This document shows, one piece after another, positions 2,392 through 17,719 of a stretch of DNA of 64,000 nt. The translations under genes and the position numbers were made by a program. The notes under the pieces were generated by a model that saw only the letters and a list, made by a program, of their open reading frames with translations, did no database searches and was not told the DNA's origin. Position 1 is the stretch's first letter. Every line of letters starts with the position of its first letter. Origin of the DNA: Chthoniobacter flavus (GTDB taxonomy: Bacteria; Verrucomicrobiota; Verrucomicrobiia; Chthoniobacterales; JACTMZ01); assembly GCA_945871065.1 (NCBI GenBank), contig CAMBUL010000005.1, positions 1,011-65,010 on the forward strand. Reading direction: 5' to 3'.

Positions 2392-3158
2392 TGCCCGATC
2401 CGCACCGCGGGGTCATCATCCCCAGCTACAACTCCGGACCGCTGCTCGAAAGCACGGTGCGCGCGGTGCTCGAGACTTGGCGCCCGGTCGTGGTGGTGGT
2501 GGACGGCTCGACGGATGGCAGCGAGCAAAGGATTCGCGACCTGGCTGCGCGGCAAAAGGACCTCCGTGTCATCTCCCATCCGGTGAACAAGGGGAAAGGC
2601 GCCGCCGTTTTGACCGGCTTGGAATTCGCACAGTCGGAAGGCTGGACCCACGCCGCCGTCTTTGATGCCGATGGACAACATGAAACCTCCGACCTGCCCG
2701 GTTTTATGGAGGCATCCCGCCTGCACCCTCAGGCCATGATTCTCGGACGCCCCGTGTTCGGTCCCGACGCTCCAACCGTGCGGGTGGTCGGCCGCCGCGC
2801 CGGCAATTGGTTCGCCAACCTCGAGACCTGGTGGGGTGGCATCGATGACTCCCTCTTCGGTCTGCGCGTTTACCCCGTCGGTCCGGCTCTGGAAACTTTG
2901 CGTTCGATCCGGGGCGGACGACGGTTCGATTTCGACACCCAACTCGCCGTGCGACTTTATTGGCGCGGTGTGCCGCCGATGAACCTGCCCACCCGCGTGC
3001 ATTATCATGCCGCCAACCTCGGCGGGATTAGCCACTTCGACTACCTGCGCGACAACCTCCTCCTCGCCCGCGCGCATGCCGGACTCCTTCTCCAGTCGTT
3101 TTTACTCGCCCCGCGGCTTGCCCGCTACCGCCCGCGCCGCCCACTCGTCGCCCCATGA
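2388..3158 (+). CDS. glycosyltransferase family 2
   Basis: GVIIPSYNSGPLL, VVVVDGSTDGS and DAD (FDADGQH) motifs. Start and stop overlap on both sides by 4 nt. Confidence 0.8.
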   Translation: MMPDPHRGVIIPSYNSGPLLESTVRAVLETWRPVVVVVDGSTDGSEQRIRDLAARQKDLRVISHPVNKGKGAAVLTGLEFAQSEGWTHAAVFDADGQHETSDLPGFMEASRLHPQAMILGRPVFGPDAPTVRVVGRRAGNWFANLETWWGGIDDSLFGLRVYPVGPALETLRSIRGGRRFDFDTQLAVRLYWRGVPPMNLPTRVHYHAANLGGISHFDYLRDNLLLARAHAGLLLQSFLLAPRLARYRPRRPLVAP

Positions 3159-3928
3159 AGGCGGAACTCCGGCGTCGCCTCGGCTTCACGCTTTCCGGCC
3201 TTTGCGCCGCAGGTGCGGCTGTTCACGCCCTCCGCGGGAATCCGGCCCGCGCCCATCGCTGGGGCATGCTCGCCACCGCAGCTTTTCTTGGCCCGACCCT
3301 CATTCCGAACTGTCCTTGGAATGGACCCGTCCTCCGGCATTTGCGCACCCGCGAGCGTGAAGTCTGGCTGACTATCGATGACGGACCCGACCCGCAAGAC
3401 ACCCCGGAAATTCTCGACGTGCTCGCCCGTCATGACGCTCGTGCCAGCTTCTTCGCCATCGGCCACAAAGTGTGGCGCTACCCCGCAGCGGCCCGCGCGG
3501 TGGTTGCGGCCGGTCACGAGCTGCACAACCACACATGGTCGCACCCCGCCGGTTCATTCTGGGCCGCCTCGCCTTCTTGCGCCCGCCACGAGATGAGCGC
3601 CGCAAGCAACGCCATCCGCCAAGTCACCGCGCAAAATCCGCGCTTTTTCCGCGCCCCGGCCGGATTGGCCAATCCATTCGTCCATACCGCGGCGGCAAAA
3701 GCCGGCCTCCGCGTTGTCGGATGGTCCGCGCGCGGTTTCGATGGCGTGCCGCACGAACCGGATGTCGTGGTGGACCGCATTGTCCGACGCCTCCACGCCG
3801 GAGCGATCATCCTCCTCCATGAAGGCCCCGTTTCCGGACTCCGGCCCGGCACCCGCGCCCGCACCCTTGAACGCCTGCTTGGCAAATTATCCGCCCTCGG
3901 CTATGGCACCGCCTGCCCGTCTGCCTGA
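3155..3928 (+). CDS. polysaccharide deacetylase (NodB homology domain)
   Basis: LTIDDGPDP and HNHTWSHP metal-binding motifs, preceded by an N-terminal hydrophobic segment. Confidence 0.8.
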   Translation: MKAELRRRLGFTLSGLCAAGAAVHALRGNPARAHRWGMLATAAFLGPTLIPNCPWNGPVLRHLRTREREVWLTIDDGPDPQDTPEILDVLARHDARASFFAIGHKVWRYPAAARAVVAAGHELHNHTWSHPAGSFWAASPSCARHEMSAASNAIRQVTAQNPRFFRAPAGLANPFVHTAAAKAGLRVVGWSARGFDGVPHEPDVVVDRIVRRLHAGAIILLHEGPVSGLRPGTRARTLERLLGKLSALGYGTACPSA

Positions 3929-3979
3929 CCAGCACGGCCTTTACTTGACCACTGAAATTCCTAAATTGGGAATCTCGCG

Positions 3980-4249
3980 ATGGCTGAAGTAACAATTGAC
4001 CTTCTCAAAGAACTGCTGGTGGAAAACTGCATGGTTAAAGTCGACCCGGAGACCATCCAAGCGGACACTCCGCTTTTCGGGCCGGAAAGCATCGGGCTCG
4101 ACTCACTCGATGCCCTGCAAATGGCCATCGCGGTTGAAAAACAATACGGGCTCGCCATCGGCGACCCCGCCACAGCCCGCGACGCCCTGCAGAGCCTCGG
4201 CGTCCTCCACGGCTGGATCACCCAGCGGCTCGCCGCCCAGGCCTCATGA
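3980..4249 (+). CDS. acyl carrier protein
   Basis: 89 aa with the phosphopantetheine site GLDSLDALQMAIAVE. Confidence 0.85.
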   Translation: MAEVTIDLLKELLVENCMVKVDPETIQADTPLFGPESIGLDSLDALQMAIAVEKQYGLAIGDPATARDALQSLGVLHGWITQRLAAQAS

Positions 4250-5514
4250 CTCCGCACCGTCAGTCCTACGATGTCGCCATCATCGGCGGTGGCCCGGCCG
4301 GCAGCGCCGCCGGCACCAGACTCGCGCGCGCCGGGCTCCGCGTCACCATTCTCGAAAAGGCAAAATTCCCCCGCTTCTGCGTCGGCGAATCCCTCCTGCC
4401 GCACGGCAATGACCTGCTCAAGGAAATCGGCGTCTGGGACAAACTCGAGCAAGCCGGCTTTCTCCGCAAATACGGCGCGGAATTCAGCACACCCGACGGC
4501 GAACGGCAAAACCGCCTCTGGTTCGGCGAGAACCTCGCCCCGCAGCACGAATACACCTACCAAGTGGAACGCGCCTCTTTCGACCAACTCCTTCTTGAGC
4601 ACGCGCGTGAAAACGGCTGCACCGTGCAGGAGGAAACGCGCGTCACGGCACTGCACGATGCACCCGGCGCGCCGATCACTCTCCACGCCGAAGGACCGGC
4701 GGGACGGACCGAGCTGACCGCTCGTTGGGTCGTCGATGCCAGCGGGCGCTGTGCCTTCGCCGGTTCCCGGGCAGGACTGCGCCGTCGCGGCACGCAAAAA
4801 GTCCGCCGCGTCGCCATCTACGCACATTTTGCAGGCGCCACCCGCCACGAAGGCAAAGCCGAAGGTCATATCACCATCATCCGCACCGCCGGCGGATGGT
4901 TCTGGCTCATTCCTCTGGCCGGTGACCGGATGTCCGTCGGCCTCGTTCTCCCCGCCGGAGAAGTCAAAGGGGAAGGCGATTATAATGACCTCTTCGCTGC
5001 CGCCGTGGCCGCCGCACCCGCTGTCGCCCAACGTCTGGACTCCGCCCGACGCATCACTCCGCTGCGCGCCACCGGCGACTACAGCTGGAAGTTTTCTTCC
5101 TTCGCCACGCGGCGCGTCTTGCTCACCGGGGACGCCGCCGGTTTCGTTGATCCCATCTTTTCCTCCGGAGTCATGCTCGCCCTGCAGTCCGGTCTCCGCG
5201 CGGCCGACCTCCTGGTCAAAGCCGACCGTTGCGGCCGCTCCCTGCGGCCTTGGGAGCGGTGGGCTTATACCCGGAGCGTCACCGGATGGATGAACCGCTA
5301 TGCCCGGCTCATCCGCTCCTTCTACGACCGGGCGGGTTTCGAAGTTTTCATGAGCCCGCAACCCGTCCTGCAACTGCCCCGCAGCGTGGCGCGCCTCGTA
5401 GGCGGGCAGACCGATCCCGGCCTGGCCGACCGTCTCCGCCTCCGTCTCTTCGACACCGTCTGCCGCCTGCAACGCCGCCTCAACATCGCCCCGCCTATCC
5501 CTTCGCTGCGCTGA
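4246..5514 (+). CDS. flavin-dependent halogenase
   Basis: Three motifs are present: GxGxxG (IIGGGPAGSAAG), the Lys-containing KFPRFCVGESLLP, and WxWxIP (GGWFWLIPL). This is the motif set of FADH2-dependent halogenases. Confidence 0.75.
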   Translation: MTPHRQSYDVAIIGGGPAGSAAGTRLARAGLRVTILEKAKFPRFCVGESLLPHGNDLLKEIGVWDKLEQAGFLRKYGAEFSTPDGERQNRLWFGENLAPQHEYTYQVERASFDQLLLEHARENGCTVQEETRVTALHDAPGAPITLHAEGPAGRTELTARWVVDASGRCAFAGSRAGLRRRGTQKVRRVAIYAHFAGATRHEGKAEGHITIIRTAGGWFWLIPLAGDRMSVGLVLPAGEVKGEGDYNDLFAAAVAAAPAVAQRLDSARRITPLRATGDYSWKFSSFATRRVLLTGDAAGFVDPIFSSGVMLALQSGLRAADLLVKADRCGRSLRPWERWAYTRSVTGWMNRYARLIRSFYDRAGFEVFMSPQPVLQLPRSVARLVGGQTDPGLADRLRLRLFDTVCRLQRRLNIAPPIPSLR

Positions 5515-5580
5515 CCGGGCCTTCGGCGCCGCCACTCACGCCAGTTTCCAAGTCCAGTCTCCCGTCTCCCGACCCGCTCC

Positions 5581-8500
5581 ATGGCTCTCCTCCGCTCCCT
5601 GCCGGGCACGCTTTTTCTCGTTGCCGTGGCCGGAGCTGGCCTCTGGGCCGCCCTCACCATCCGCTTCGAAACGGAACTGCTCCCCGCCCTTCCCCCGGAA
5701 CTGCCGAGCGTGCGCGGCCTCGCAGCTTTCACCCGCTTGGCCGCCGGCGAAAACGAGGTCTTTGCCGTAGCCGACCCTCGTCTGCCGCTGGAGGAACGCA
5801 CCCGCTTGCTGGCCGCCACCCGTGCCGCCTTGACCGCCCTGCCCTCCGTCGCCTCCATCACCACCCCGGCGGAACAATTCGAAACCCAGTCCGGCACCCT
5901 CGCCGCTTGGCTTCTGCTCCAAGCAGACTCATCCGTCCTCGCCGGTGTCAACGCCTCGCTGGCGCCCACCGCGGTGGCACAAAGTCTGCAGAGCCTCCCT
6001 GCACAGCTGGCCGGAGCCATCGATCCCTTCGCCATCGTCAGCTTGCAACTCGATCCGCTCGGTCTCCTGCCCGCGACAATCGATCCGCCTGACCAGCCCG
6101 CTCCCGCTTTTCTTGTCATAACGCCTTCGTCACCGCTCGCGGACAGTGCCGCCGATGACGCCTTCATCACCGCCTTGCGTGGCGCCATGCCCGCTGACTC
6201 CTGCGGAAAAGTTTTACTCACCGGACGCCCGGTTTTCAACGCCGACATCTCCCGCCAAATGCGGGGCGACATCATCCTTATGGTGGTCGCCGCGGTCTTC
6301 CTGCTGGCTGTCGCCTTCTGGATTTTCTACCGCACGCTGCGCCCGCTCGGATGGATCATGTTCCTCCAATTGTTCGCCCTACTGGCCGGGCTCGTCGCGG
6401 CCCGTGTCTTTTTCGGCAGCCTCAATGTTATCAGCATCGGATTTGCCTCCATCCTCCTCGGCGTCGGCATGGACTACAGCATTCTGGTTTACCACCACTT
6501 CGGCTCGCCGCATCGCGATGATCAGTCCGTCTGGCGCACCTTGCGACGCGCCATTTGGTTCAGCGCGCTCATCACGGCCGCCGCATTCTACTTTCTCGCC
6601 CTCACCTCGTTCCCCGCGCTGCAGCAACTCGGCGTCCTCGTCGGCACCGGGCTCCTCGTTTCAGCCCTCCTCGCTACATGGCAGCTGCAGATCATCCTTT
6701 CCGCCCGCCCCCCGCACGCCCCACCGATTCTCTTCCGTGCCAGCCGCAGCACTGCCGGATTGGTCGAGCGCCACCGCGGCCTGCTCGCCGGCGGGGCGGT
6801 CTTCCTCGCGCTTACCATCCTTTGGCTGCAACCTTGGTCGTCCTCCTCCGGATTTTACCAACCCGGACTCGACCGCCTCCGCCCCGTCGGCAGCGATGCT
6901 TACACCGCCCAAGAGTGGCTGCAGGAACTTGATCCCGCCGCCAACGATGCGGTCTATGTGCTGCGGGGGGAAAATCATGACGTCGTCCGCGGCGCCGCGG
7001 CCTCCATGGCGGCGCGATTCCCGGACACCGATCCCGCTGCCCTTCTCGCCCGCATCCCCTCGGAATCACAACGTGTAGCGAACCTGCAGGCCTGGAACCC
7101 GGACACCACAACACGTCTGGCCGAAGCCTTCCAGCTTGCCGGTCTCGGTCCCGAATGGTCCGGCCCCACGCTGCAATTCACCACCGCGCTCGACGCCGCG
7201 GCGCGCGGGGACGACCGCGCCTTTGCCGCTCTCCATCCCCTACTCCGCACCACTGCGGGAAAGGATGCTGACGGAGCCTACGCCGTCATCCGCATCCCCG
7301 CCGCGGCCACCACCCCGGTGCCGGAAGATGGTTGGAACATCGCTGACGCTGAAATCCTGCCGGTCAGTTGGATCTCGCTCACTAGGGAAATCACCACCCT
7401 CGCGCAGCACGACTTTTACCGGCTCAGCATCGCCATGCTTGCGGCCATCGTTCTGCTCTGCGCCTTGGCCCAGCGATCCCTCCGCATGGTCGCGCTCAAC
7501 CTGCTCGCCATCGTTCTCTCCGCCACCCTCTTTCTCTGGTTGCTGCGGCTGACCGGCACCTCCCTCAGTCCACTCTCTCTCATCAGCCTGCCCCTGCTGG
7601 TCGGACTCGTCGTCGACTACAGCCTGCACGTCCTCATGGCGCTGAAAAACCAACGCGGCGACCTGGTCAAAACCTACGATCATCTCGCTGCCCCCATCCT
7701 GCTCACCGGCATCAGTGCCTGCATCGGCTTCGGTGCGCCCGCCCTGACCGGACAGCCTGCCCTGCAAAATTTCGGTTTGGTCATGGACTTCGGCATCATC
7801 GCAGCTGTTGTCGCCTGTCTGGCTTTGTTGCCGGTATTTTTCCCCCGCGGCACCAACCGCGATTATCGCGATCACGGATTCTACCGGTTTTTCTACCGCA
7901 AACGCGGATTCGAATGGATTCTTCTCGGTTGGAGATTCCTCGGACGCCGCGGCGCGTGGCTCATTTCGCGGACGCTCGGACTTTTTTACGCCTTGACCCA
8001 TCCCGCCACTGTGCGCGCCGTGCGCGACAATCTTGCCATGCTCGATCCGGCTCAGGCCGGCTTTGCCTCCGCCTGCCGCCTCTTCATGAATCAATCGGAA
8101 AATTTTTCCACCTACGGCCGTCTCTCCACGCGCCCAACCTCGGAGGTGGTCGACATGCTGGGTTTCCGTCAGGGCTTCGAGCACCTGCAGCGGGCACGTG
8201 ATGGCGGCCAAGGCTGTCTGCTCGTCACCGGGCATCTTGGTTTTTTCGAACTGGGCGGACTCGTCATGGCCCAACTCGGCTTTCCCATGACCGCCCTCAC
8301 CCTGCCGGAACCTTCGACCGCGTTGACCGAATGGCGCGCCGACTTCCGCGCGCGCTGGGGCGTCGAAACCATCGTGGTCGGCAATGATTCGTTCTCCGTC
8401 CTCGACATCGTGCGCTCTTTGCAAAACGGCGCCTTTGTCGCCTCACTGGCCGACCGTCCCTACGATGGCAACAGCGTGGCCGTTGACCTGCCGCACGGAC

Positions 8501-8754
8501 GCATCCGCTTCTCCACCGGCCCCGTCTTGCTCGCCCTGCTCGCCGGCTGCCCGATTGTTCCCGTCGGCATCACCCGCCAACCCGACGGTCTTTACCACAT
8601 TGAAGCGCGTGCCTACATCGAACCGCATTGGCAACCCGAAGGCCGCACCGCCACCCTCGAGCTCTACACGCGCGAGGTGGCAGCCGCGCTCGTTCCTCTC
8701 TTTGCCGCCTACCCCGAGCAGTGGTATCACTTCACTTCCTTGCGCTGCGAATAA
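5581..8754 (+). CDS. MMPL/RND-type exporter fused to a C-terminal LpxL/HtrB-type (lipid A biosynthesis-like) acyltransferase
   Basis: 1057 aa with two MMPL half-repeats (GVGMDYSILVYHHF and GLVVDYSLHVLMAL) and many TM segments. From about residue 770 (nt ~7890) there is an LpxL-like domain (LTHPATVRAVRDNLAML; LLVTGHLGFFELGG = HX4E). Confidence 0.75.
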   Translation: MALLRSLPGTLFLVAVAGAGLWAALTIRFETELLPALPPELPSVRGLAAFTRLAAGENEVFAVADPRLPLEERTRLLAATRAALTALPSVASITTPAEQFETQSGTLAAWLLLQADSSVLAGVNASLAPTAVAQSLQSLPAQLAGAIDPFAIVSLQLDPLGLLPATIDPPDQPAPAFLVITPSSPLADSAADDAFITALRGAMPADSCGKVLLTGRPVFNADISRQMRGDIILMVVAAVFLLAVAFWIFYRTLRPLGWIMFLQLFALLAGLVAARVFFGSLNVISIGFASILLGVGMDYSILVYHHFGSPHRDDQSVWRTLRRAIWFSALITAAAFYFLALTSFPALQQLGVLVGTGLLVSALLATWQLQIILSARPPHAPPILFRASRSTAGLVERHRGLLAGGAVFLALTILWLQPWSSSSGFYQPGLDRLRPVGSDAYTAQEWLQELDPAANDAVYVLRGENHDVVRGAAASMAARFPDTDPAALLARIPSESQRVANLQAWNPDTTTRLAEAFQLAGLGPEWSGPTLQFTTALDAAARGDDRAFAALHPLLRTTAGKDADGAYAVIRIPAAATTPVPEDGWNIADAEILPVSWISLTREITTLAQHDFYRLSIAMLAAIVLLCALAQRSLRMVALNLLAIVLSATLFLWLLRLTGTSLSPLSLISLPLLVGLVVDYSLHVLMALKNQRGDLVKTYDHLAAPILLTGISACIGFGAPALTGQPALQNFGLVMDFGIIAAVVACLALLPVFFPRGTNRDYRDHGFYRFFYRKRGFEWILLGWRFLGRRGAWLISRTLGLFYALTHPATVRAVRDNLAMLDPAQAGFASACRLFMNQSENFSTYGRLSTRPTSEVVDMLGFRQGFEHLQRARDGGQGCLLVTGHLGFFELGGLVMAQLGFPMTALTLPEPSTALTEWRADFRARWGVETIVVGNDSFSVLDIVRSLQNGAFVASLADRPYDGNSVAVDLPHGRIRFSTGPVLLALLAGCPIVPVGITRQPDGLYHIEARAYIEPHWQPEGRTATLELYTREVAAALVPLFAAYPEQWYHFTSLRCE

Positions 8755-8755
8755 C

Positions 8756-9373
8756 ATGAATCCCGCCGGAATCTTTCTTCTTTTTGCCGTATTAAGCGCA
8801 ACCGGTCTGGCCAGCGACCTTGCACCGTCCGACACGGTCGTTTTGGAAAAACGCTTTTTCGCCGCCCAGCAAAAAACCCGCACCCTCGAGGCCGCCTTCA
8901 CCCAGACTATCTCGGCGCCCGGTCTCGCAAGTCCCACCATCAGCCGCGGACAGCTTTTTTACCGTGGACCTGACGACCTTCGCATTTCTTATCAAGTCCC
9001 GCCCGGGGAACTCATGCAACTCGACGCCGGAACCTTCACCACCATCCGCACGGGCCGCGCTCCCCTTGCTCGCCCGGCCGGTCATCCCTCCGCCCGGGCG
9101 CTCGGAGCCCTGCGCGACATCCTGCGCGGGACTCGCCCGCCGGGGGATATGCAAGTGTCCGTCACACGTCAGGCTGGGAACTACCTCGTCGTCCTTGTTC
9201 CCTCAACCCCGAGCAACTTCCAACCAGAACGGATCGAGAACACGATCGATGCAGACACCATGCAACTCCGCTCCATGAGCCTGACCTTGCCGCACGGCAC
9301 CGTCATGCGGTTCGATTTTTCCGCGGTCCGACGCAACCATGTTTTGCCCGCCGCCACTTTCCGTCTTCCATGA
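8756..9373 (+). CDS. LolA-like outer-membrane lipoprotein carrier protein
   Basis: An internal ATG at 8756, one nt after the exporter stop, gives a signal peptide (MNPAGIFLLFAVLSATGLASD). Size (~205 aa) and position next to the MMPL exporter match the LolA-like partner of APE-type clusters. The call is weak on motifs alone. Confidence 0.5.
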   Translation: MNPAGIFLLFAVLSATGLASDLAPSDTVVLEKRFFAAQQKTRTLEAAFTQTISAPGLASPTISRGQLFYRGPDDLRISYQVPPGELMQLDAGTFTTIRTGRAPLARPAGHPSARALGALRDILRGTRPPGDMQVSVTRQAGNYLVVLVPSTPSNFQPERIENTIDADTMQLRSMSLTLPHGTVMRFDFSAVRRNHVLPAATFRLP

Positions 9374-9786
9374 ACATACCGCTCACCCCGCACGGACCAG
9401 GCTTCCGGTTCATCGACCGCTTCGTGAAACATGATGCCACCAGCGGCACGGGTTGGAAAACCCTCGACCCCGACTTGCCGTTTTTCGCCGACCATTTTCC
9501 CGGACGCCCCCTCATGCCTGCCGTGCTCCTTGTCGAGTGCGCCGCCCAAGCCGCCGGCGTTCTCTGGATGCAGGATTCCGCGCAACCCGAGACGCCGCTT
9601 TTCCTCGCCGGCATCGACCAATTCCGTGTCCTCGGGCCCGTCGCACCCGGGGAGACCCTTGAAACACACATCACCTTGGTCAAGGAACTCGGCGCTCTCG
9701 CCCAATTCGAAGCCGAGTCCCGCGTGGCCGATCGCCCCGTAGCCCGCGGACGATTCATGATGAGTCGGCAATTGGCCGGCGCGTGA
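9370..9786 (+). CDS. 3-hydroxyacyl-ACP dehydratase (FabZ/FabA-like hotdog)
   Basis: FFADHFPGRPLMPAVLLVECAAQAAG active-site region; 4-nt overlap with the upstream gene. Confidence 0.75.
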   Translation: MNIPLTPHGPGFRFIDRFVKHDATSGTGWKTLDPDLPFFADHFPGRPLMPAVLLVECAAQAAGVLWMQDSAQPETPLFLAGIDQFRVLGPVAPGETLETHITLVKELGALAQFEAESRVADRPVARGRFMMSRQLAGA

Positions 9787-9836
9787 GCAAGAGAAAATGC
9801 CTCCTCATCGCCCCTGCGGTGGGTTGAAATAAAGAA

Positions 9837-11054
9837 GTGTCCGCCACCCCGACTCCCCAAATCGCGATCACCGGCCTCGGCTGCGTCACCGCCTTGGGCG
9901 GAGATGCGACCTCGACCTGGGAAGCACTCCACACCGGTCGTTCGGCACGTGGCCCCCTGACCGCCATCGCCGTCGACGGTTGCCGCGTCACCGAAGGGGC
10001 AGAAGCAAGCCTCCCCTCTTGGCCCTCGTGGCCGGAAAAACGCCTGCGACGACTCAGCCGCTCGACCCGTCTCGCCCTGCCGGCCGTCCGTCAGGCCCTA
10101 AGCGAAGCCCGCTTGCTCGATGCGAATGACCGCTGCCTGCTGCCCCGACTCGAAATGTCGGTCAGCACCACGGCCTGCGGCATGGAAAAGGGCGAAGAAT
10201 TCCTCCGCGCACTCTGGAGCAAGACCCGCACCGGCCAATCCGCGCGCGTCGCCCAATACCAGTCTCAAGCTCAGACCGGCGCGATTCATGATCTCTTCGG
10301 TTTCGACGGACCGGTCATGACAGTGGCCAATGCCTGCGCCGGTGGCGGCAATGCCATCGGCCACGGCGCGGACCTTATCCGCAGCGGGATGACGGATATC
10401 GTCCTGGCCGGCGGCTACGAGGCGCTGAGCGAACTCGTCTTTGCCGGTTTTGACGGACTCCAGTCTCTTGCACCAGAGGCCTGCCGTCCCTTTGACCGCG
10501 GACGCCGTGGACTCATGCTCGGCGAAGGCGCCGCCTTTCTTGTGCTGGAAAATGCCGGCCGTGCGCGTGCGCGCGGCGCGAAGATCCTTGGGTATCTCGC
10601 TGGCTACGGCCAGACCACAGACACCCACCACCTGACCCGACCTGCCCCCGACGGCGCTCCGCTCGAACGCGCCATGCGGCGCGCACTCGAACAAGGCCGG
10701 ATCAACGCGTCCCAAGTCGGCTACGTCAACGCCCACGGAACCGGGACACCTTTCAACGACGGAGCCGAAGCACAGGCTTTCCACCGCGTCTTCGGTGCCG
10801 GCCAAACCAAACTCAGTTCGACCAAAGCCGCTCTTGGCCACACCCTCGGCGCGGCCGGTGCCATCGAGGCCGTTCTTTGTCTGTTTGCCCTGCAAAGCGG
10901 ACAACTCCCGCCGCAGATCAATCTTCTCGATCCCGAACCCCTCGTCGCCACGGCCCTCGTCGGGGTTGGCGAAAAAGCCGACCTCTCCGCCGCAATGAGC
11001 GTGAACCTCGGGTTCGGCGGATCCAACGCCGCAGTCCTTTTCACCCGCGCATGA
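9837..11054 (+). CDS. beta-ketoacyl-ACP synthase (KAS I/II type)
   Basis: GTG start. The Cys-His-His triad is seen in context: ANACAGGGNAIG, NAHGTGTPFND, LGHTLGAAGAIE. Confidence 0.85.
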   Translation: MSATPTPQIAITGLGCVTALGGDATSTWEALHTGRSARGPLTAIAVDGCRVTEGAEASLPSWPSWPEKRLRRLSRSTRLALPAVRQALSEARLLDANDRCLLPRLEMSVSTTACGMEKGEEFLRALWSKTRTGQSARVAQYQSQAQTGAIHDLFGFDGPVMTVANACAGGGNAIGHGADLIRSGMTDIVLAGGYEALSELVFAGFDGLQSLAPEACRPFDRGRRGLMLGEGAAFLVLENAGRARARGAKILGYLAGYGQTTDTHHLTRPAPDGAPLERAMRRALEQGRINASQVGYVNAHGTGTPFNDGAEAQAFHRVFGAGQTKLSSTKAALGHTLGAAGAIEAVLCLFALQSGQLPPQINLLDPEPLVATALVGVGEKADLSAAMSVNLGFGGSNAAVLFTRA

Positions 11055-12019
11055 ACCTTTCCCTCCTCTCCGCGGGCGGCGTCACGCCCGCTGGTCTCGG
11101 AACCGATGCGATCACCGCGCCCTGGCCGGTCACCGCCACGCACTCCCACGGGGGCGTCCCCGTGCAAGCTGGCCTGATCGAACAAAAAGATCCCTCACTC
11201 CTCCGCTGGCAACAGGAACCCCGCCTCCGCCGCGCCAGCCCGATCACCTACTTCATGATCGAGGCCGTCGAGCAGGCCCTTCAAGGCGCTCCGCACCTTG
11301 ACCGCGATCGCACCGGGGTCGTTGCCTCTTTTTTCCTCGGTTGCCTCGTTTACAGCGTTCGTTTCTACCGCCAGATCACCGAGGAAGGACGCCGCTTTGC
11401 CAGTCCTGTCCTCTTTCCCGAAACGGTTTTCAACAGCCCTCTCAGCCATGTGGTCGCCACGCTCGGCCTCGGGGGGCCGGTCTATTCGCAGATCGGGGAC
11501 AAAACCTGCTGGGCCTCCTCCCTCCGCACCGCGCAGTGTTGGCTCGCCAATGGCGACTGCGACCACGTGATCGTCCTCGCCGCCGAGGAGTTTGATCCGC
11601 ACGAAGTCGACGCCTTGCATTCCGGAGGTCTCCTGCGTGGCGGCCTGCAACCGTGTGAGGGCGCCATCGCTTTGTTGCTCGGTCCCTCCGCGAGCGGCCC
11701 CACGATTGGGGCCATCGCCGATGGCTATGACTTTCGCACCCGACAAGAAGTGTTGGAAGCCGCCGAACGTTGTCTCGCCGAATTCTCGCCGCCCACCCCC
11801 CTGCTCGATACCGCCACCGGATGGACCCGCACCGCCGCAGCCAAAATAGGCCGCTCCATCATCGGACCAAAAGCCACGCTTACGGAAGGCTTCACCCTCT
11901 CGGCGGCCGCCGACACCATGCGTGCGCTCGACATCGTGGCCTCCGGGCAATCTCCCGAAGTCATTGTCCCCGTCTGGGGCCTGACCCGGCAGGTCGCGGC
12001 CTACCGCGTTACCGCGTAA
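11051..12019 (+). CDS. ketosynthase-like partner protein (chain-length-factor-like; lacks the HGTGT and GH motifs)
   Basis: The ATG at 11051 overlaps the KS stop (ATGA), so the long upstream extension in the ORF track (10877) is rejected. Thiolase-like N-terminal half (RASPITYFMIEAVEQAL, PVYSQIGDKTCWASS), but no C-terminal His motifs are visible. Confidence 0.6.
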   Translation: MNLSLLSAGGVTPAGLGTDAITAPWPVTATHSHGGVPVQAGLIEQKDPSLLRWQQEPRLRRASPITYFMIEAVEQALQGAPHLDRDRTGVVASFFLGCLVYSVRFYRQITEEGRRFASPVLFPETVFNSPLSHVVATLGLGGPVYSQIGDKTCWASSLRTAQCWLANGDCDHVIVLAAEEFDPHEVDALHSGGLLRGGLQPCEGAIALLLGPSASGPTIGAIADGYDFRTRQEVLEAAERCLAEFSPPTPLLDTATGWTRTAAAKIGRSIIGPKATLTEGFTLSAAADTMRALDIVASGQSPEVIVPVWGLTRQVAAYRVTA

Positions 12020-13590
12020 TCCAAGACCTCGGGCCCCGCAACGACGGCGGGTTCTTCCACCACCTCTTGCTTTCTTCGTCCCCACGAACGCCATCCCTCG
12101 GTCAACTCCAGCCACGCCCAACCGGCCAACCCGCCCGCAATAACTTTGAGCAGATAAGGCACGCGGAAATTGAACCCCGGGAAAAGATCCCGCTGCCGCG
12201 CGTTGCTCCGCCCGAAGGTGCCGTTCCTCCGGCGCTCCCGCGCCATGGCGGCAAAGCGCCGGTTGTAGCCTCGCATCAAGGCAAAGAAAGGACCCGCCTC
12301 CCGCGCCGCATAGGGCGGCTCGGCGAAACCCTCCGTTCCATCGGAAAACACCGGACGCGCGACAAACAGATAGTAAAGACCGATATCCAGCCGGAAAGCC
12401 AAACGCATAATGTCATAGTCGCCCAAGTAGTCGTATTTGTCCTCGTAAAGCGCCTCGAACATGCGGCGGTAGCTCGTCGTAAAATCCCCGTTGTGCTTGG
12501 CCAGCAACGGAGCAAGGTCCTCGCCAGCCCGCCAAGCCCGGATCAAGCGCACCGCGCCGATCGCCGTGAAAGCAATCCAATCCATGCCCGGACTGTAAAG
12601 CGGATCGAGAAAGGCCGACGCGTCGCCAGTCAGGACAAAGCCGTCCCCCGCCTGCAGCCGCGAGCAATAGGGCAGATTGCGCCGGAAATGGACGTCACCG
12701 CCGACGAACTCCGCACCTGCCATCATCTCCCGGGCCGCAGGGTGCCGGCCGAGAAAATCACGCAACTTTTCCCCGACCGGCATCTTGTCTTCCGGCCAAT
12801 CGGCGCAACGCTGGTCCAAGACCACGCCGATACTCGTGTCGCCGCCTTTCAACGCGATCCACCAAGCCCACCACCCGTCACCCGCGATGTGGTTTGTCGC
12901 GGTGCCGCGGATACCGACATACGAACCCTGCCAACCCTCGTGCCGGCCGGTCAGCTCCGCCGCATCCCAGTCCCCGGCCCCGCGCCAACGTGACCACGCG
13001 GAAAGCGTGCGATGACGCGTGTTGGGCTCGAGCCAATCGTTGGCTCTGGCCAGCATGGCCTTGATCCCCGAGGCATCCACCACCCAACGGGCCCGAACCG
13101 TTCGCGCACCGGCCACCGTCTTCACCTCGAGGGTCTGATAACCGCCGGAAGCCAAGGCAACGGACGCCACCGTAGCCGGACGCCAAACCTCCGCACCCGC
13201 TTCTTCCGCCCGCCGGAGCACTTCTTCGTCCACCACCGAGCGGTCGATGAGGAACGATGGAACGGCGGACAAATACCGCCCACCGATTTCCGAACAGTCA
13301 CCGAGATCCTGCGTCTCGCGGTTGGCGAACCAAAAGCGCAGACCGTTCTTGGTCAGCTGCGTCTGCGTGAGAAACTGCGTCAGCCCGAGCACGCGGCACA
13401 AAAAATAGGCACTCACTTCGACCGTTGCCTCACCGACGCGACGCTTGAAAGCCTCGTTCTTCTCGATCACCACAATCCGCAGAGCGGGATCCTCGCGCCG
13501 GAGCAGAAGCGCCGCCGCCGCGCCACTCAGCGCACCGCCGATCACCGCGACGTCACACTCGGTGATCGCCTCTGCCGCTGTCTCTTTCAT
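12001..13590 (-). CDS. FAD-dependent halogenase-like oxidoreductase (tryptophan-halogenase family-like)
   Basis: VAVIGGALSGAAAAL dinucleotide fold, KRRVGEATVE (GEAT motif) and a degenerate WxWxI(P->A) motif (GWWAWWIAL). The start was taken at M 13590; the ORF extends to 13629. Confidence 0.65.
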   Translation of the reverse strand: MKETAAEAITECDVAVIGGALSGAAAALLLRREDPALRIVVIEKNEAFKRRVGEATVEVSAYFLCRVLGLTQFLTQTQLTKNGLRFWFANRETQDLGDCSEIGGRYLSAVPSFLIDRSVVDEEVLRRAEEAGAEVWRPATVASVALASGGYQTLEVKTVAGARTVRARWVVDASGIKAMLARANDWLEPNTRHRTLSAWSRWRGAGDWDAAELTGRHEGWQGSYVGIRGTATNHIAGDGWWAWWIALKGGDTSIGVVLDQRCADWPEDKMPVGEKLRDFLGRHPAAREMMAGAEFVGGDVHFRRNLPYCSRLQAGDGFVLTGDASAFLDPLYSPGMDWIAFTAIGAVRLIRAWRAGEDLAPLLAKHNGDFTTSYRRMFEALYEDKYDYLGDYDIMRLAFRLDIGLYYLFVARPVFSDGTEGFAEPPYAAREAGPFFALMRGYNRRFAAMARERRRNGTFGRSNARQRDLFPGFNFRVPYLLKVIAGGLAGWAWLELTEGWRSWGRRKQEVVEEPAVVAGPEVLDYAVTR

Positions 13591-13652
13591 GCCTTGAGGA
13601 GAATATGTGTCTCGACGTGAAGCACGCAATCGTGCAATTCCCCGCCCTCCGC

Positions 13653-14618
13653 ATGCGCAAACACTGGCTCCTCATCCTCCAAGTCGCGCTATCCTTCTTC
13701 CTGCTCTGGAGGATCTTCGGCCACCCCACCCTGCGCCAGGAAGCGGCGCGGTTGCTCGGGGAGGCCGATCTCGTCTGGCTGCTGGGCGGGCTCTTCACCG
13801 CCTTACTCACCGAGTTTCTCTGCTCCGTGAGGTGGTGGCTCATGCTCCGGATCTTCGGCGTACCCGTCGGATTCGGCAGAACCTGCGCCTTCGCCGGAGC
13901 CGGACTTTTCTTTTCCCTCGGACTCCCCGGTTCCGGCGGGGGCGATGCCTTCCGCATTATCTATGTCATGCGTCTTCATCCGACGCGCAAACTCCGAGCC
14001 GCTCTCTCGGTGCTGGCCGACCGCCTGTGCGGACTTTTCGCCTTGCTGCTCACCGTGGTCTTTCCCGTCTTGCGCTATGCGCAATTCGCGGCGCATCCCG
14101 AATCCTACGCGATCCTTGCCGCCGCCGGTACCGTGCTGGTTATCGCCGCCTTGCTTGTCCTCCTCTGGTGGTTGACCACCTGGCCCAGCCTCCACCAAAA
14201 GTGGATTCATCTCGCCCCGGCCAAGATTCGCCCCCAAGCCGTGCGACTCGGGCACATCTTCGCGTGGATGGGTCGTCGCCCTCAACCGGTTTTCGCCGCG
14301 ATCGCGCTCTCCTATGGCGCCCTCTTGGCCCATTTCACGACCTATTGGTTCAGCGTCCGCGCCTTCGGCCTGCCGCTTTCGCCCGGCGACATCTTCGCCA
14401 TCATGCCGCTGGTCGACACCCTCACCATGCTGCCCGTGACCCTTTACGGCATCGGACTACGGGAAACGCTCTTCGAATATCTGCTGGGCGGACTCTTCGG
14501 CGTCGCCCCGGGGGCCGCCACGCTGGCCTCCCTTGGGGGCTTCTCCCTCCAAGCCGCCGTCGCCCTCCTCGGGGGTCTCCTTATTCCCTTCACCGCTCCG
14601 CGAAAAACAACTGCTTAA
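13653..14618 (+). CDS. flippase-like / lysylphosphatidylglycerol-synthase-TM-like integral membrane protein
   Basis: Polytopic hydrophobic protein (about 8 TM segments by eye). The start was taken at ATG 13653 (MRKHWLLILQVALSFFLLW); the ORF begins at 13605. The family call is from general resemblance only. Confidence 0.5.
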   Translation: MRKHWLLILQVALSFFLLWRIFGHPTLRQEAARLLGEADLVWLLGGLFTALLTEFLCSVRWWLMLRIFGVPVGFGRTCAFAGAGLFFSLGLPGSGGGDAFRIIYVMRLHPTRKLRAALSVLADRLCGLFALLLTVVFPVLRYAQFAAHPESYAILAAAGTVLVIAALLVLLWWLTTWPSLHQKWIHLAPAKIRPQAVRLGHIFAWMGRRPQPVFAAIALSYGALLAHFTTYWFSVRAFGLPLSPGDIFAIMPLVDTLTMLPVTLYGIGLRETLFEYLLGGLFGVAPGAATLASLGGFSLQAAVALLGGLLIPFTAPRKTTA

Positions 14619-16075
14619 ACGCGTCGGACTTTGCCGCTGGCCGTGCGTGGCAACTCACTCACCATCTGGTAGCGCACGGGAATTTTATACCCGGCCAACC
14701 GCCTGCGGCAATGAGCCGACAACTCGCCATCAGTCGGCGGAAAGGTCCCGTCGACCGGCAAAATGTCCGCCACCGGTAACATGCCCCACCGCGCATGCTC
14801 CTCGCCATGAACCCGCGCATCAACCACCCCCTCATGCCGGCGCAACACTTCCTCGATCTCCTCGGGGAAGCACTTGCTCCCGCCGACATTGATCACGGAC
14901 TTCAGCCGGCCGACCAACCGGATACTGCCGTCCGCTTCCTGCCGCGCCAGATCACCCGTGTGAAACCACCCGTCGGCCATGACCTCCTGCCGCGGACACC
15001 ATGGTGACAAATAGGCGTCAAACATACCCGGGCCGCGCAGACACAATCCACCTTCCCTGCCGTTCCCTTCCAACCGCAGTTCGAAATCGTCCGGCCGGCC
15101 GACCACCATGGAGTCTTCACCCGACGTGCTCAACAACGGCAAGCCCGCTTCGATGATGCCGAAGCCCTGCGCCAAGCGGACTCCGTAGCGACGGACAAAA
15201 GCTCCGGCCGTTTCCGGCGCCAACGGCGCGGCGGTCGAAACCGCCAGACGCAACCCGGGCCAATCCCGCTCGGACGCCTCGGCCGCGAGCAACGCCGCTT
15301 GGAACGGCGATCCATAAAAGACCGTCGCCCCGTATTGGCAGGCGGCTGTCAGCAAATCACCGGCCAAGGATCCCTCCGGCAGCACCACGGTCGCGCCTTC
15401 GCGCAAATACAGCAAAATCGACACCGCGAAATGATGCGCCATCGGCAAGGTCCACAACACACGGTCGGTTCCGCCGATCCCCAAGCGCCGGTTCGCGGAA
15501 TCCAAACGCTCGCGCAATGTCCCATGCGATAGCACCACCCCCTTGCTCGCGCCGGTTGTTCCGGAGCTGAAACGAATAAAAGCGGGACAAACGCTCTCGA
15601 AATCCTCCACCGGAAAACATGGCTCTTCCGCCGCCAGGCGTTCCCACCGCAGACCACCGCCGATCTCATGGCGCTCCGACTCGTCGGCCGCCCGCTCCTG
15701 ACCTCCCTGCGAAAGCACGCCGTGCAACGCCGTCGTTCGGGCCAACATCGAGCGCTCGTCCGCCGGCAGTTCCCCGGCCACCGGCACCGCGCACCCCCCA
15801 GCCCTCATCACCGCCAACATGAGCACCGCATGCTGCACTCCATCCGGACAACGCACCCCGATCCGCGCCACACCCTCGGCGGGGAACCCCGGCAACCGCA
15901 CTATCACCGTCGCCCACCTCTCCACTTCGGCCACCAGACGGCCGAAGGATAATTCTCCGTCACGCCCGACAAAGGCCGCCCGCTCTGGCTCCTCCGCCGC
16001 CCGGGCGAAAATCGCCTCCACAATGCTGTCCGATAACGCTTTCACGGATCGCACAGACTGAACCGTCCGCGCCAC
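14615..16075 (-). CDS. AMP-dependent synthetase/ligase (acyl- or aryl-adenylating enzyme)
   Basis: Adenylate-forming motifs FSSGTTGASKGVVLSH, GWFHTGDLA, YKIP and SGKVRR. Confidence 0.85.
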   Translation of the reverse strand: MARTVQSVRSVKALSDSIVEAIFARAAEEPERAAFVGRDGELSFGRLVAEVERWATVIVRLPGFPAEGVARIGVRCPDGVQHAVLMLAVMRAGGCAVPVAGELPADERSMLARTTALHGVLSQGGQERAADESERHEIGGGLRWERLAAEEPCFPVEDFESVCPAFIRFSSGTTGASKGVVLSHGTLRERLDSANRRLGIGGTDRVLWTLPMAHHFAVSILLYLREGATVVLPEGSLAGDLLTAACQYGATVFYGSPFQAALLAAEASERDWPGLRLAVSTAAPLAPETAGAFVRRYGVRLAQGFGIIEAGLPLLSTSGEDSMVVGRPDDFELRLEGNGREGGLCLRGPGMFDAYLSPWCPRQEVMADGWFHTGDLARQEADGSIRLVGRLKSVINVGGSKCFPEEIEEVLRRHEGVVDARVHGEEHARWGMLPVADILPVDGTFPPTDGELSAHCRRRLAGYKIPVRYQMVSELPRTASGKVRRV

Positions 16076-16090
16076 CGCTTCAATCCGCGA

Positions 16091-17392
16091 CTACTGCGCC
16101 CCCAGCAAGTCGGCCCGTATTGCGGACCACATCAAGGCCCGTTCGTCCGCGGACAAAACACCGTCCCGCCAGCAGAGCGAGGCCGTCAACCGCCCCTCCC
16201 GCTCGCTGAAAAACAGTCCTGTCCCCGGCGGTTGCGGCACCGAAGGCACATGCCAACCGTCCACGATCGAGCCACCGCAAAACTCCCGTACCCCCGGCAG
16301 AAATTCTCCGGTGTGGGCGTGATAAAAGGAAGCCAGCTGCCCGGAAGCCTCGCGCCGCAAAAATCGCCGGTAAAGCGGCGCCGGCAAGCGACGCATCCAG
16401 TCGATCATGACGAGAAACGCCCCATCGAACTTGTCACGCGTCATCGCCGCGAATTGTCCGTGTAACGCCCGCGCCGTGTCCTCCACCGAGGCCGGATCCG
16501 GCAGCGGCCGCGCGAAAAACAACTGCGACACCTGATTTTGAAAGATCGGCCCGCGCGCTCCCCTCTTCCGTCCCTGCACCGAAATCGTACATTCCAGCGA
16601 GCCGTTCTCTTGTCCCCGCGCCCGGAACACGGCGGCGTGCGCCCGCATCGTGACCGCGAGAAACCACGGCAAGGCGAAGATCCCGCCCGTCACCGGATCG
16701 GCCCGCCGTTTCATGGCCGCCGTTTCCTCACGGGAGAATCGCACCGCTTCGAAACAAGCCCGGCCCGCGCGCGCCGGCGCCCCGCCCAAAGAAACCACCC
16801 GCTCGGACCGCAAAGACCAATACCGCTCGAGAAAAGGCCGCACCGCGCGAAATTCTTGCCACCATGACCGGTGGCGCGCAAAGGGCAGCGCATGGGAATT
16901 CACCTCCGGCTTGGCCGGCACCTCTTCACCCAACCGCGCCACCTCGGCCAAAACCAATTCCACTCCGCGCGCATCGAGCAGCAAATGACTCCAACTCATC
17001 AGCACGACGAAACCTTCGCTCGCCGGCCACACGTCGAAGCGCAGTCGGCCCGGCCACTGGCCTTGCAAACGCTCTTCGGCCAACCCGCGCCAGTCTGCGC
17101 CGGCGGGATGAATTTCGACCGCCACCTCGGCCGTCTGGTCGCCACGCCACACGGGCACCGCTCCCGGCAGTCCGCGCTGCAACTTGGCGCCAAGGATGGG
17201 CTGACTCTCGGAAAACCTCGCCGCGGCCTCCCTCAAACGCTCCACCTCGAACCCGCGTCCCACCTCCAACACAGTCACCCCGACATGACGGCCCTGCCCG
17301 GACCGCTCCATCAGATCCTCGAGCGCCAGCAGGTAGCAGTCGCACCCGCCCAAGGGCGCGCGCAGCTTGGCGCGGGACGGACTCGGCGTCAT
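16091..17392 (-). CDS. condensation-domain-like acyltransferase (HHxxxDG-superfamily, variant SHLLLDA)
   Basis: 433 aa with MSWSHLLLDARGVE at the position expected for the HHxxxDG catalytic motif of NRPS C / PapA5 / WS-DGAT type enzymes. The start overlaps the ACP stop by 4 nt. Confidence 0.55.
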   Translation of the reverse strand: MTPSPSRAKLRAPLGGCDCYLLALEDLMERSGQGRHVGVTVLEVGRGFEVERLREAAARFSESQPILGAKLQRGLPGAVPVWRGDQTAEVAVEIHPAGADWRGLAEERLQGQWPGRLRFDVWPASEGFVVLMSWSHLLLDARGVELVLAEVARLGEEVPAKPEVNSHALPFARHRSWWQEFRAVRPFLERYWSLRSERVVSLGGAPARAGRACFEAVRFSREETAAMKRRADPVTGGIFALPWFLAVTMRAHAAVFRARGQENGSLECTISVQGRKRGARGPIFQNQVSQLFFARPLPDPASVEDTARALHGQFAAMTRDKFDGAFLVMIDWMRRLPAPLYRRFLRREASGQLASFYHAHTGEFLPGVREFCGGSIVDGWHVPSVPQPPGTGLFFSEREGRLTASLCWRDGVLSADERALMWSAIRADLLGAQ

Positions 17393-17646
17393 GCCGGCGC
17401 GGCGCAGCGCCGCACCATGGCAGCCAGACTGGAAGCCGTGGAAAAATTATCCCGGGTCACCGCGGATTCCGGCACCCTCACCCCGAAGCGTTCCTCGATC
17501 GAAATCATCAATTGCATGATACCCATCGAATCAAGACCCGCCGCGAACAAATCGGTCTCCACCGTCAGCGGTGCGCCGCCCTCAAATAACTTCTCGCGCA
17601 CCAAGCCCAACAGAGCGTCCTCAAGATTCGCGGGTAATCCGTGCAT
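17389..17646 (-). CDS. acyl carrier protein
   Basis: 85 aa with the phosphopantetheine site AGLDSMGIMQLMISIEERFGV. Confidence 0.8.
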   Translation of the reverse strand: MHGLPANLEDALLGLVREKLFEGGAPLTVETDLFAAGLDSMGIMQLMISIEERFGVRVPESAVTRDNFSTASSLAAMVRRCAAPA

Positions 17647-17666: not shown

Positions 17667-17699
17667 AAGCAAAAGGCCCGCGAGATAAATCCGCGGGCC
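17667..17699 (-). terminator. intrinsic terminator after the pentapeptide-repeat gene
   Basis: 8-bp GC stem GGCCCGCG (17675-17682) / CGCGGGCC (17692-17699) with a 9-nt loop, followed on the minus strand by TTTTGCTT. Confidence 0.5.
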
Positions 17700-17719
17700 C
17701 TGCTTGGAATTGGCAAAAA

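Follow-up and report, generated by a model that had tools for sequence, protein, structure and literature searches.

What does a condensation-fold enzyme, encoded between its own carrier protein and an adenylating enzyme, contribute to a bacterial polyene-lipid gene cluster? The question is raised by a stretch of 64,000 nucleotides from Chthoniobacter flavus (assembly GCA_945871065.1, contig CAMBUL010000005.1, positions 1,011 to 65,010 of the forward strand), here called the window. In it, three minus-strand genes encode an acyl carrier protein (ACP1), a protein of 433 residues (C433) and an adenylate-forming ligase. We hypothesize that this trio is a dedicated acyl-loading and acyl-transfer branch on the adjoining polyene-lipid cluster, a reading that we hold with about as much belief as doubt. 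The three genes are:

17389-17646, minus strand: ACP1, a stand-alone carrier protein of 85 residues with the phosphopantetheine serine in GLDSMG (GLDSMGI); PF00550, E 2.4e-12
16091-17392, minus strand: C433, a stand-alone condensation-fold enzyme of 433 residues with the motif W134-S-H136-LLL-D140-A-R-G143
14615-16075, minus strand: the ligase, 486 residues with a GTG start, adenylate-forming (ANL); PF00501, E 4.5e-46, and PF13193, E 1.7e-16

The stop codon of ACP1 overlaps the start codon of C433 by 4 nt (ATGA), an arrangement of translational coupling, and 15 nt (16076-16090) separate the C433 stop from the GTG of the ligase. The strand, the overlap, the gap, the DSM serine and the SHLLLDA stretch of C433 had been pointed out before in an interpretation made from the letters of the DNA alone (the sequence-only reading), and all of them were found in place. 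Because ACP1 and the ligase match Pfam families and 163 homologues align with C433 over its full length, at 40-97% identity, we regard the trio as genuine genes and not as chance open reading frames of DNA with 64% G+C.

The predicted fold of C433

C433 is not recognized by any profile of Pfam, even at E = 10, or of NCBIfam at E = 1. It fails the gathering threshold of PF00668 (Condensation, 30.6 bits) with no match even at E = 10, and Pfam gives no significant match to WS_DGAT (PF03007/PF06974) or to PapA-type acyltransferases. Other members of its family come closer to these models: the Saprospiraceae homologue scores 20.9 bits with PF00668, the distant member P0266 passes the threshold with 38.7 bits, and a second distant member, P0262, has weak, sub-threshold matches to WS_DGAT. 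A profile of 32 C433 homologues, compared with the PDB sequences, gave six weak matches (E 0.14-1.1), three of which belong to the condensation superfamily. In all three the alignment falls on SHLLLDA (residues 135-141), which the family profile places on the PHxxxDG of AzeD (8s6l) and on the equivalent stretch of cyclization (Cy) and condensation (C) domains. The match to 8s6l, an entry deposited as “phthiocerol dimycocerosyl transferase”, has an E-value of only 0.14.

An AlphaFold2 model was calculated from the alignment of the 32 homologues (pLDDT 88.4, pTM 0.89) and compared with the PDB by Foldseek, which returned 304 matches at E ≤ 1e-3. The 50 matches listed are all C, Cy, epimerization (E) or C(modAA) domains, TRI3 or AzeD, with full-length alignments. 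The top match is the stand-alone C protein AzeD (8s6l, E 6.6e-21, TM 0.76, 15% identity), canonical condensing C domains match nearly as well, and the C(modAA) domain of AmbE is, with 20%, the most identical of the 50 that are listed. Together with the distant family members that reach Pfam Condensation, this result makes the assignment of the modelled fold secure: C433 is predicted to have the fold of condensation domains and CoA-dependent acyltransferases, with two lobes resembling chloramphenicol acetyltransferase in a V-shaped pseudo-dimer. The sequence-only reading had called the protein condensation-like, and the predicted structure, the Foldseek result and the invariant catalytic His and Asp bear it out. 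Of the families for which it had proposed a search (Condensation, WES_acyltransf, PapA), none was matched in Pfam or NCBIfam; membership in the superfamily was shown instead by the Foldseek search of the model.

His136, Asp140 and Gly143 are invariant in the 32 homologues and again in a set of 80. Residue 141, a Gly in HHxxxDG, is Ala in C433. The position of the first His is occupied by S, C, L, R, Q, N, F, A, D, T, K or H among the 80 homologues. Because this position is hypervariable, the Ser of C433 says nothing about its chemistry, and the idea that it is shared with ester-forming relatives had to be given up as uninformative. By the Pfam results, the C433 family is a divergent branch of Condensation proteins that current models mostly miss.

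The family is large. At E ≤ 1e-3 an exhaustive profile search collected 1160 representative clusters (50% identity), of which 376 remain at E ≤ 1e-30. Verrucomicrobiota (Chthoniobacterales, Terrimicrobiaceae) dominate, and further hosts are Gammaproteobacteria, Burkholderiales, Planctomycetota, a Saprospiraceae, a Nitrospirae and a “Pelobacter” genome. Nearly all named sources are metagenome-assembled genomes (MAGs), and no characterized or cultured, annotated member was found in the family. A tblastn search of 72,556 plasmids with C433 gave no match. The Saprospiraceae homologue, used as a query aimed at characterized flexirubin producers, returned only 11 matches, all uncultured; two of these carry the Joint Genome Institute label “NRPS condensation-like uncharacterized protein”, where NRPS stands for non-ribosomal peptide synthetase.

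Conservation of the carrier-condensation pair

To 80 species-level loci that were retrieved, with short flanks, we mapped the window proteins and a hidden Markov model of the ACP. A carrier protein is encoded on the same strand within 500 nt upstream of the C gene in 57 of the 78 loci with enough upstream sequence, and 17 of the 21 loci that have none belong to one derived clade, the orphan clade described below. Moreover, four family members (P0136, P0137, P0145 and P0187) are natural ACP-C fusions with an N-terminal phosphopantetheine-binding (PP-binding) domain. The ATGA overlap in the window, the upstream carriers and the fusions are together what is expected of a carrier-dependent C enzyme.

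Downstream of the C gene the order is more variable. A flavoprotein of family PF12831 follows directly in 28 of 62 loci and is itself followed by the ligase in 19 of 57, and the ligase comes directly after the C gene, as in the window, in 14 of 62. An ANL ligase is present within 3 kb downstream in 32 of the 57 loci with enough downstream sequence; the rest belong mostly to the orphan clade. In a neighbour-joining tree the order ACP-C-flavoprotein-ligase occurs in all deep branches, and the order ACP-C-ligase of the window is found in a derived clade. The sequence-only reading had taken the trio as the module. The conserved unit is the ACP-C pair, as the 57 loci and the fusions show, the commonest downstream order is flavoprotein and then ligase, and the trio derives from a conserved cassette of four genes, ACP-C-flavoprotein(PF12831)-ligase.

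How closely is the cassette tied to polyene genes? As markers of polyene clusters we scored ketosynthase (KS), chain length factor (CLF), MMPL, LolA, halogenase, family 2 glycosyltransferase (GT2), deacetylase and acyltransferase genes. At least one of them is present in 32 of the 47 loci scored as ACP-C-ligase or ACP-C-flavoprotein, the short flanks notwithstanding, and this linkage spans Verrucomicrobiota, Bacteroidota, Nitrospirota and Desulfuromonadales-like genomes. In Terrimicrobiaceae M30B24, however, on a contig of 659 kb, an ACP-C-ligase trio (L048, 9700-12750) is located between nuoD and ftsZ-ftsA-ftsQ-ddl-murCB, and a Pfam check found no polyene genes within 10 kb of it. Its sister L050 likewise has the trio apart from genes recognizable by tblastn as polyene genes. 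Conservation of the trio independently of polyene clusters, which the sequence-only reading had named as damaging to its proposal, is therefore seen in part: the L048 trio has no polyene genes within 10 kb, and one lineage keeps the C protein alone.

That lineage is a monophyletic orphan clade (L003, L004, L020, L022-L026, L028, L029, L037, L039, L041, L053 and L055), in which the C protein occurs without ACP, flavoprotein or ligase and retains the catalytic His and Asp. The order mnmG-trpA-C433-(cNMP-binding protein)-squalene/phytoene synthase-like gene is common to about 14 closely related Terrimicrobiaceae genomes of this clade.

Several other loci vary the cassette. The gammaproteobacterial order is LolA-ACP-C-flavoprotein, in some loci followed by a ligase and in others not, and sometimes with MMPL upstream as well; no KS was found within 10 kb of these cassettes. 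In Nitrospirae GWC2_57_13 (L084, 500-17200), the genes ACP-C-flavoprotein-ligase are interleaved with four genes for B12-binding radical SAM proteins; the operon also carries KS/CLF and a GT2+DUF2062 protein, and its gene content points to a polyene lipid with methyl groups or other modifications. In the “Pelobacter” MAG (L082, 9725-14335), ACP-C is followed by a 210-residue unknown protein, a group II decarboxylase dependent on pyridoxal phosphate (PLP) and a LOG-like protein; the decarboxylase, an amine-generating enzyme, could furnish an amine as acceptor. One MAG (CAYRTN01) contains two separate ACP-C-flavoprotein-ligase cassettes in a single genome bin (L064 and L066). The tblastn matches are split into pieces for the flavoprotein in L057 (11323-12725) and L080 (11444-13945) and for the ligase in L080, which points to frameshifts, pseudogenes or assembly errors.

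The ligase and the two carrier proteins

All NCBIfam matches of the ligase are under their cut-offs. Models of fatty or aryl CoA-ligases score 206 bits, compared to 128 bits for NRPS amino-acid adenylation (TIGR01733), the cut-off of which is 317. The best PDB relatives, with similar E-values, are oxalate-, feruloyl- and o-succinylbenzoate-CoA ligases and benzoate/4-chlorobenzoate ligases. The protein is colinear over its whole 486 residues with PDB CoA ligases of 491-514 residues, and no fatty acyl-AMP ligase (FAAL) is among the 60 best. In a hand alignment made by eye, its A4 region LPMAHHF is of the LPxxH type of CoA ligases, with a His at the position of Asp235 in PheA, and the C-terminal SGKVRR, as read from the translation, retains the A10 lysine. 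The window proteins were also compared by BLASTP with the aryl polyene (APE) cluster of E. coli CFT073; ApeH (WP_001077063) aligns with the ligase at E 0.003 over 65 residues only. These comparisons argue for an acyl- or aryl-acid-activating, CoA-ligase-like ANL enzyme that is neither an NRPS adenylation (A) domain nor of the ApeH type. The sequence-only reading could not choose by eye between fatty-acyl, aryl and amino-acid activation, a choice that the comparisons make in part, in favour of the acyl/aryl-CoA-ligase-like class.

ACP1 has its best PDB sequence matches in D-alanyl carrier proteins (E 7.5e-9) and aminoacyl carrier proteins, and its partial NCBIfam matches are PRK07081 and DltC. 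Its helix II has DSMG, compared to DS(L/I)D in ApeE, ApeF, AcpP and the second carrier protein of the cluster:

3965-4246, plus strand: ACP2, an ApeE-like carrier of the polyene core, between the polysaccharide deacetylase and Halo1

ACP2 is 34% identical to E. coli ApeE (E 7e-10), matches NCBIfam PRK09184 (E 2e-12) and has the DSLD form of helix II. The similarity of ACP1 to ApeE is marginal (E 4.5e-4), and ACP2 finds ACP1 with E 3.9e-6 in phmmer. The cluster thus has two ACPs of different types, with ACP1 resembling DltC and the peptidyl carrier proteins (PCPs) and not the carriers of fatty acid synthesis (FAS) or ApeE. Carriers of the DltC/PCP type dock with adenylating and C enzymes. Because of this and of its DSMG helix II, ACP1 looks like a partner of such enzymes and not like an elongation ACP, a role for which the cluster has ACP2.

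Three candidate identities were tried and rejected. Comparison with the E. coli CFT073 cluster ruled out the ligase and ACP1 as orthologues of ApeH and ApeE; the two pairs are not equivalent. An amino-acid-activating ligase of the proline-to-pyrrole or D-Ala type, prompted by the DltC-like carrier, was set aside in view of the higher scores of the CoA-ligase models and of LPMAHH. The OlsH/OlsI system of ornithine lipids, which a weak match of the ACP had brought up, is GH3-based and unrelated.

The polyene-lipid cluster and neighbouring genes

Few bacterial gene clusters are as widespread as those of the aryl-polyene type, and to our knowledge an APE-type product has been solved only for the E. 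coli/Xenorhabdus lipid. In the window, the polyene genes lie on the strand opposite to the trio:

1585-12019, plus strand: polyene-lipid core (Pfam, NCBIfam, BLASTP against Ape proteins)
1585-2391, plus strand: PlsC-type acyltransferase, ApeD match (BLASTP)
2388-3158, plus strand: GT2, ApeJ match, 38% (BLASTP)
3155-3928, plus strand: polysaccharide deacetylase (Pfam)
4246-5514, plus strand: Halo1, halogenase-like (Pfam)
5581-8754, plus strand: MMPL fused to an LpxL-like acyltransferase (Lip_A_acyltrans), ApeM match; the LpxL-like part matches the C-terminus of ApeJ
within 8384-9373, plus strand: LolA (NCBIfam LolA2_flexi)
9370-9786, plus strand: FabZ/ApeI-like dehydratase (Pfam)
9837-11054, plus strand: KS, ApeR/ApeO match (BLASTP)
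within 10877-12019, plus strand: CLF-like protein (Pfam)

By its gene content the cluster is of the aryl-polyene type, similar to those of xanthomonadin or flexirubin, with the trio probably as an accessory branch. The visible cluster (246-17646), whose left end is the edge of the window, contains only one KS/CLF pair, and no ketoreductase, ApeK-like thioesterase, methyltransferase or ApeH homologue was found in it; ApeH homologues are also missing from the rest of the window and from 85 related loci. That the trio stands outside the usual APE core, as the sequence-only reading held, agrees with a ligase lacking meaningful similarity to ApeH and with ACP2, not ACP1, as the ApeE-like carrier. 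In the literature searched we found no C-fold protein in aryl-polyene, xanthomonadin or flexirubin clusters.

The lipid of Xenorhabdus is APE-O6-GalNAc-phosphate-diacylglycerol, and its polyene and conjugated fatty acid are attached by ApeD and by the LpxL-like part of the bifunctional ApeJ (bioRxiv 10.1101/2020.12.19.423268). Because both of these have homologues in the window, C433 would be an additional transferase. The LpxL-like acyltransferase is fused to MMPL in the window and to the GT2 of ApeJ in E. coli. As a variant of the same enzyme class, locus L021 (19965-21272) has a PlsC-type acyltransferase fused to a PAP2 phosphatase domain, in a compact cluster of the Terrimicrobiaceae type without halogenases.

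Two flavoprotein genes and two boundary elements complete the picture:

246-1604, minus strand: FAD-dependent oxidoreductase of family PF12831, E 7e-78
12001-13629, minus strand: Halo2, flavin-dependent halogenase-like, PF04820, E 3e-18, with the motifs WAWWIA and FLDPLYSPG (read from the translation)
13605-14618, plus strand: flippase-like membrane protein (LPG_synthase_TM), PF03706, E 4e-29
17672-17705, minus strand: G+C-rich hairpin followed by UUUUGCUU (U-tract), between the upstream pentapeptide-repeat gene and ACP1

The flavoprotein at 246-1604 is 39-49% identical to the cassette flavoproteins that adjoin the C gene elsewhere. It is the orthologue of the gene next to the C gene in most other lineages, and so the fourth cassette member, relocated to the opposite end of the cluster. 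Its listed start overlaps that of the acyltransferase gene on the other strand (1585-2391) by 20 nt (1585-1604). Since the first 31 residues have low confidence in its model and the homologues have 419-445 residues, the true start is probably further in. Halo2 is two genes away from the cassette in the window, and a halogenase-like gene adjoins the cassette, divergent from the ACP, in L054, L056, L057, L065, L072, L074, L077, L080 and L081.

The flippase-like gene is convergent with the ligase gene, with 4 nt shared by their 3' ends, and it is syntenic beside the cassette in L001, L006-L012 and L014. On the other side, the hairpin has a folding energy of -30.1 kcal/mol (z -5.2), and none of 200 shuffled sequences was as stable. 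It marks the upstream limit of the transcription unit of the trio.

Proposed function and alternatives

How could the trio act as a loading and transfer branch? The ligase would adenylate a carboxylic acid of the acyl or aryl type (no alpha-amino acid) and thioesterify it onto the phosphopantetheine of ACP1. While tethered there, the acyl group may be modified by the PF12831 flavoprotein (246-1604) and the halogenase-like flavoproteins. C433 would then take acyl-S-ACP1 as donor and move the acyl group to an O- or N-nucleophile. In NRPSs, a thiolation (T) domain that immediately precedes a C domain supplies the donor. The acceptor would be on a lipid head group, with the hexosamine amine freed by the polysaccharide deacetylase of the cluster as the leading candidate, because with a GT2 and a deacetylase in the cluster a free amine on the HexNAc of APE lipids would arise. 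We infer the direction of transfer, the tailoring on the carrier and the identities of acid and acceptor; the scheme of activation, tethering and transfer given by the sequence-only reading stays the best-fitting logic. A wider proposal, possible but doubtful in our view, is that the C433 family is an unrecognized class of ACP-dependent, stand-alone condensation enzymes working with type II polyketide synthase (PKS) and lipid machinery, which add to the head group of outer-membrane polyene glycolipids an extra acyl or aroyl group tailored on the DltC-like carrier by PF12831 flavoprotein and halogenases. An example would be the N-acylation of a de-N-acetylated hexosamine, following an LpxC/LpxD-like or NodB/NodA-like logic, and if this proposal is right, a new structural class of APE lipids would exist in Verrucomicrobiota and other phyla.

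Several observations weigh against a loading and transfer branch. The closest structural neighbour of C433, AzeD, is no transferase but a dehydratase that acts on a free substrate. The cassette ligase could load the polyene starter, given that no ApeH-like ligase occurs in the window or the 85 loci. In L005, L044 and L045, ACP-C-flavoprotein has no ligase within reach. The model of the flavoprotein (pLDDT 89) resembles known structures only through its FAD-binding domain (TM 0.36-0.46), the matches being aromatic hydroxylases (OxyS, PgaE, PnpA), geranylgeranyl reductase and fumarate reductases, so that the predicted fold is that of a generic group-A flavoprotein and gives no specific function. 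Finally, Verrucomicrobia and Saprospiraceae loci contain the deacetylase, but none was seen close to the cassette of Nitrospirae L084 or to those of the gammaproteobacterial loci. Because it is not seen in all cassette loci, the case for the deacetylase-made amine as acceptor is weak, and a strict link between deacetylase and C433, which we had considered, was not established.

The main rival turns the trio into a starter and release system. Here the ligase is a functional analogue of ApeH/XanA2 and charges ACP1 with an aryl starter, whose ring is tailored on the carrier by the flavoprotein and halogenases; KS/CLF then elongate the chain on ACP1, and C433 replaces a thioesterase by off-loading the (halo)aryl polyene as an ester or amide. 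It would explain why the window cluster and the examined related loci have no ANL enzyme besides the cassette ligase and why no ApeK-like thioesterase was found in the window; two ACPs and one ligase recall the two ACPs of E. coli (ApeE, ApeF), halogenase-like genes adjoin the cassette in many loci, aromatic hydroxylases are among the nearest structures of the flavoprotein (with TM only about 0.4), and L082 and L084 have the order KS-CLF-ACP-C. Yet the DSMG of ACP1 lacks the acidic helix-II residue of ACP2, ApeE, ApeF and AcpP, and its resemblance to DltC/PCP carriers does not suit an elongation ACP. Chain attachment in the characterized system is the work of LpxL-like and PlsC-like transferases, both of which are already present, and in L048 the trio is isolated between cell-division genes and nuoD and has no KS within 10 kb. 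We consider this explanation rather unlikely. A transfer function is avoided altogether if C433 dehydrates, epimerizes or cyclizes an intermediate, ACP1-bound or free, as the AzeD, C(modAA), E and Cy branches do. The structural comparison can be read in this way, with AzeD as the best match and AmbE C(modAA) as the most identical among the 50 listed; the first His of HHxxxDG is absent in both C433 and AzeD, and the authors of the AzeD study leave the functions of other stand-alone C proteins open (bioRxiv 10.64898/2026.07.17.738954). The sequence similarity to AzeD, however, is insignificant, canonical condensing C domains match nearly as well, and AzeD acts on a free substrate without a dedicated carrier, in contrast to a family that is coupled or fused to an ACP. 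This makes such a reaction improbable.

The neighbourhood itself might also mislead, in that the trio could be a self-contained pathway, for example to an N-acyl amine or to an ester metabolite or lipid, which has no functional tie to the polyene genes and lies beside them here only through the arrangement of the genome. The trios of L048 and L050, the gammaproteobacterial cassettes without KS and the clade that keeps the C protein alone after trpA are compatible with this. Against it stand the polyene markers in 32 of 47 cassette loci despite short flanks and the spread of this linkage over the four groups of genomes named above; even the seemingly isolated gammaproteobacterial cassettes are preceded by LolA and sometimes by MMPL too. 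We regard a pathway with no functional tie to the polyene as very unlikely.

If the trio is indeed a dedicated loading and transfer branch, outer-membrane pigments would gain a tailoring step that is new for them and, probably, new chemistry at the head group. Stand-alone C enzymes would then extend into type II PKS and lipid pathways. The interest of the C433 family lies in its size (about 1160 clusters), in its lack of a Pfam or NCBIfam model, and in the partners that accompany it: a dedicated carrier protein and, in most cases, a flavoprotein and a ligase. The ACP-C pair or fusion is small, soluble and readily tested in vitro.

Comparison with known systems

The APE clusters of E. coli and Xenorhabdus contain a ligase and an ACP, ApeH and ApeE, and share with the window homologues of KS, CLF, dehydratase (DH), GT2, lysophospholipid acyltransferase (LPLAT), MMPL and LolA. 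The E. coli cluster has no C-fold protein, PF12831 flavoprotein or deacetylase, whereas the window has all three. For the window cluster as a whole, the closest described chemistry is that of xanthomonadin: XanA2 is reported as a 3-hydroxybenzoate:ACP ligase and XanC as the ACP of the pathway (PMC6859482). By this description, an ATP-dependent acid:ACP ligase operates in a halogenase-containing aryl-polyene cluster, and in the literature searched no C-fold partner is described for the clusters of Xanthomonas or Lysobacter.

Among proteins of the same fold, AzeD is the founding member of the “C_standalone” clade of 35 homologues and dehydrates a free intermediate without a dedicated carrier (bioRxiv 10.64898/2026.07.17.738954). 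AzeD and C433 are both stand-alone, lack the first His and keep the catalytic His, with a TM of 0.76. At 15% identity and a profile E-value of 0.14, however, C433 does not cluster with this clade at the sequence level, its family of about 1160 clusters is far larger, and it has a dedicated and sometimes fused ACP, so that it was not placed in “C_standalone”. PapA5 and the WS-DGAT enzymes, also stand-alone and of the same fold, acylate lipid alcohols from carrier- or CoA-bound donors; they have no significant sequence match to C433, and only P0262 shows the weak, sub-threshold WS_DGAT similarity.

The logic of a loading and transfer branch is best known from two other pathways. In vibriobactin synthesis, the stand-alone adenylating enzyme VibE, the carrier VibB (an aryl carrier protein, ArCP) and the C enzyme VibH transfer an acid to a free nucleophile. 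The window trio is alike in its three-part logic and fold classes, but VibH keeps HHxxxDG, VibE is an aryl-acid enzyme of the DhbE type, and the setting is a siderophore NRPS compared to a type II PKS lipid cluster; the relation is one of superfamily only. In C-1027 synthesis (SgcC1, SgcC2, SgcC3, SgcC and SgcC5), a carrier-loaded acid is halogenated and hydroxylated by flavoenzymes and then made into an ester by a stand-alone C enzyme. While SgcC1 is an amino-acid A domain, unlike the window ligase, and the flavoprotein of the window is of family PF12831 with a presumed action on the carrier, the gene set of the window matches that of C-1027: a ligase, an ACP, halogenase-like proteins, a flavoprotein and C433.

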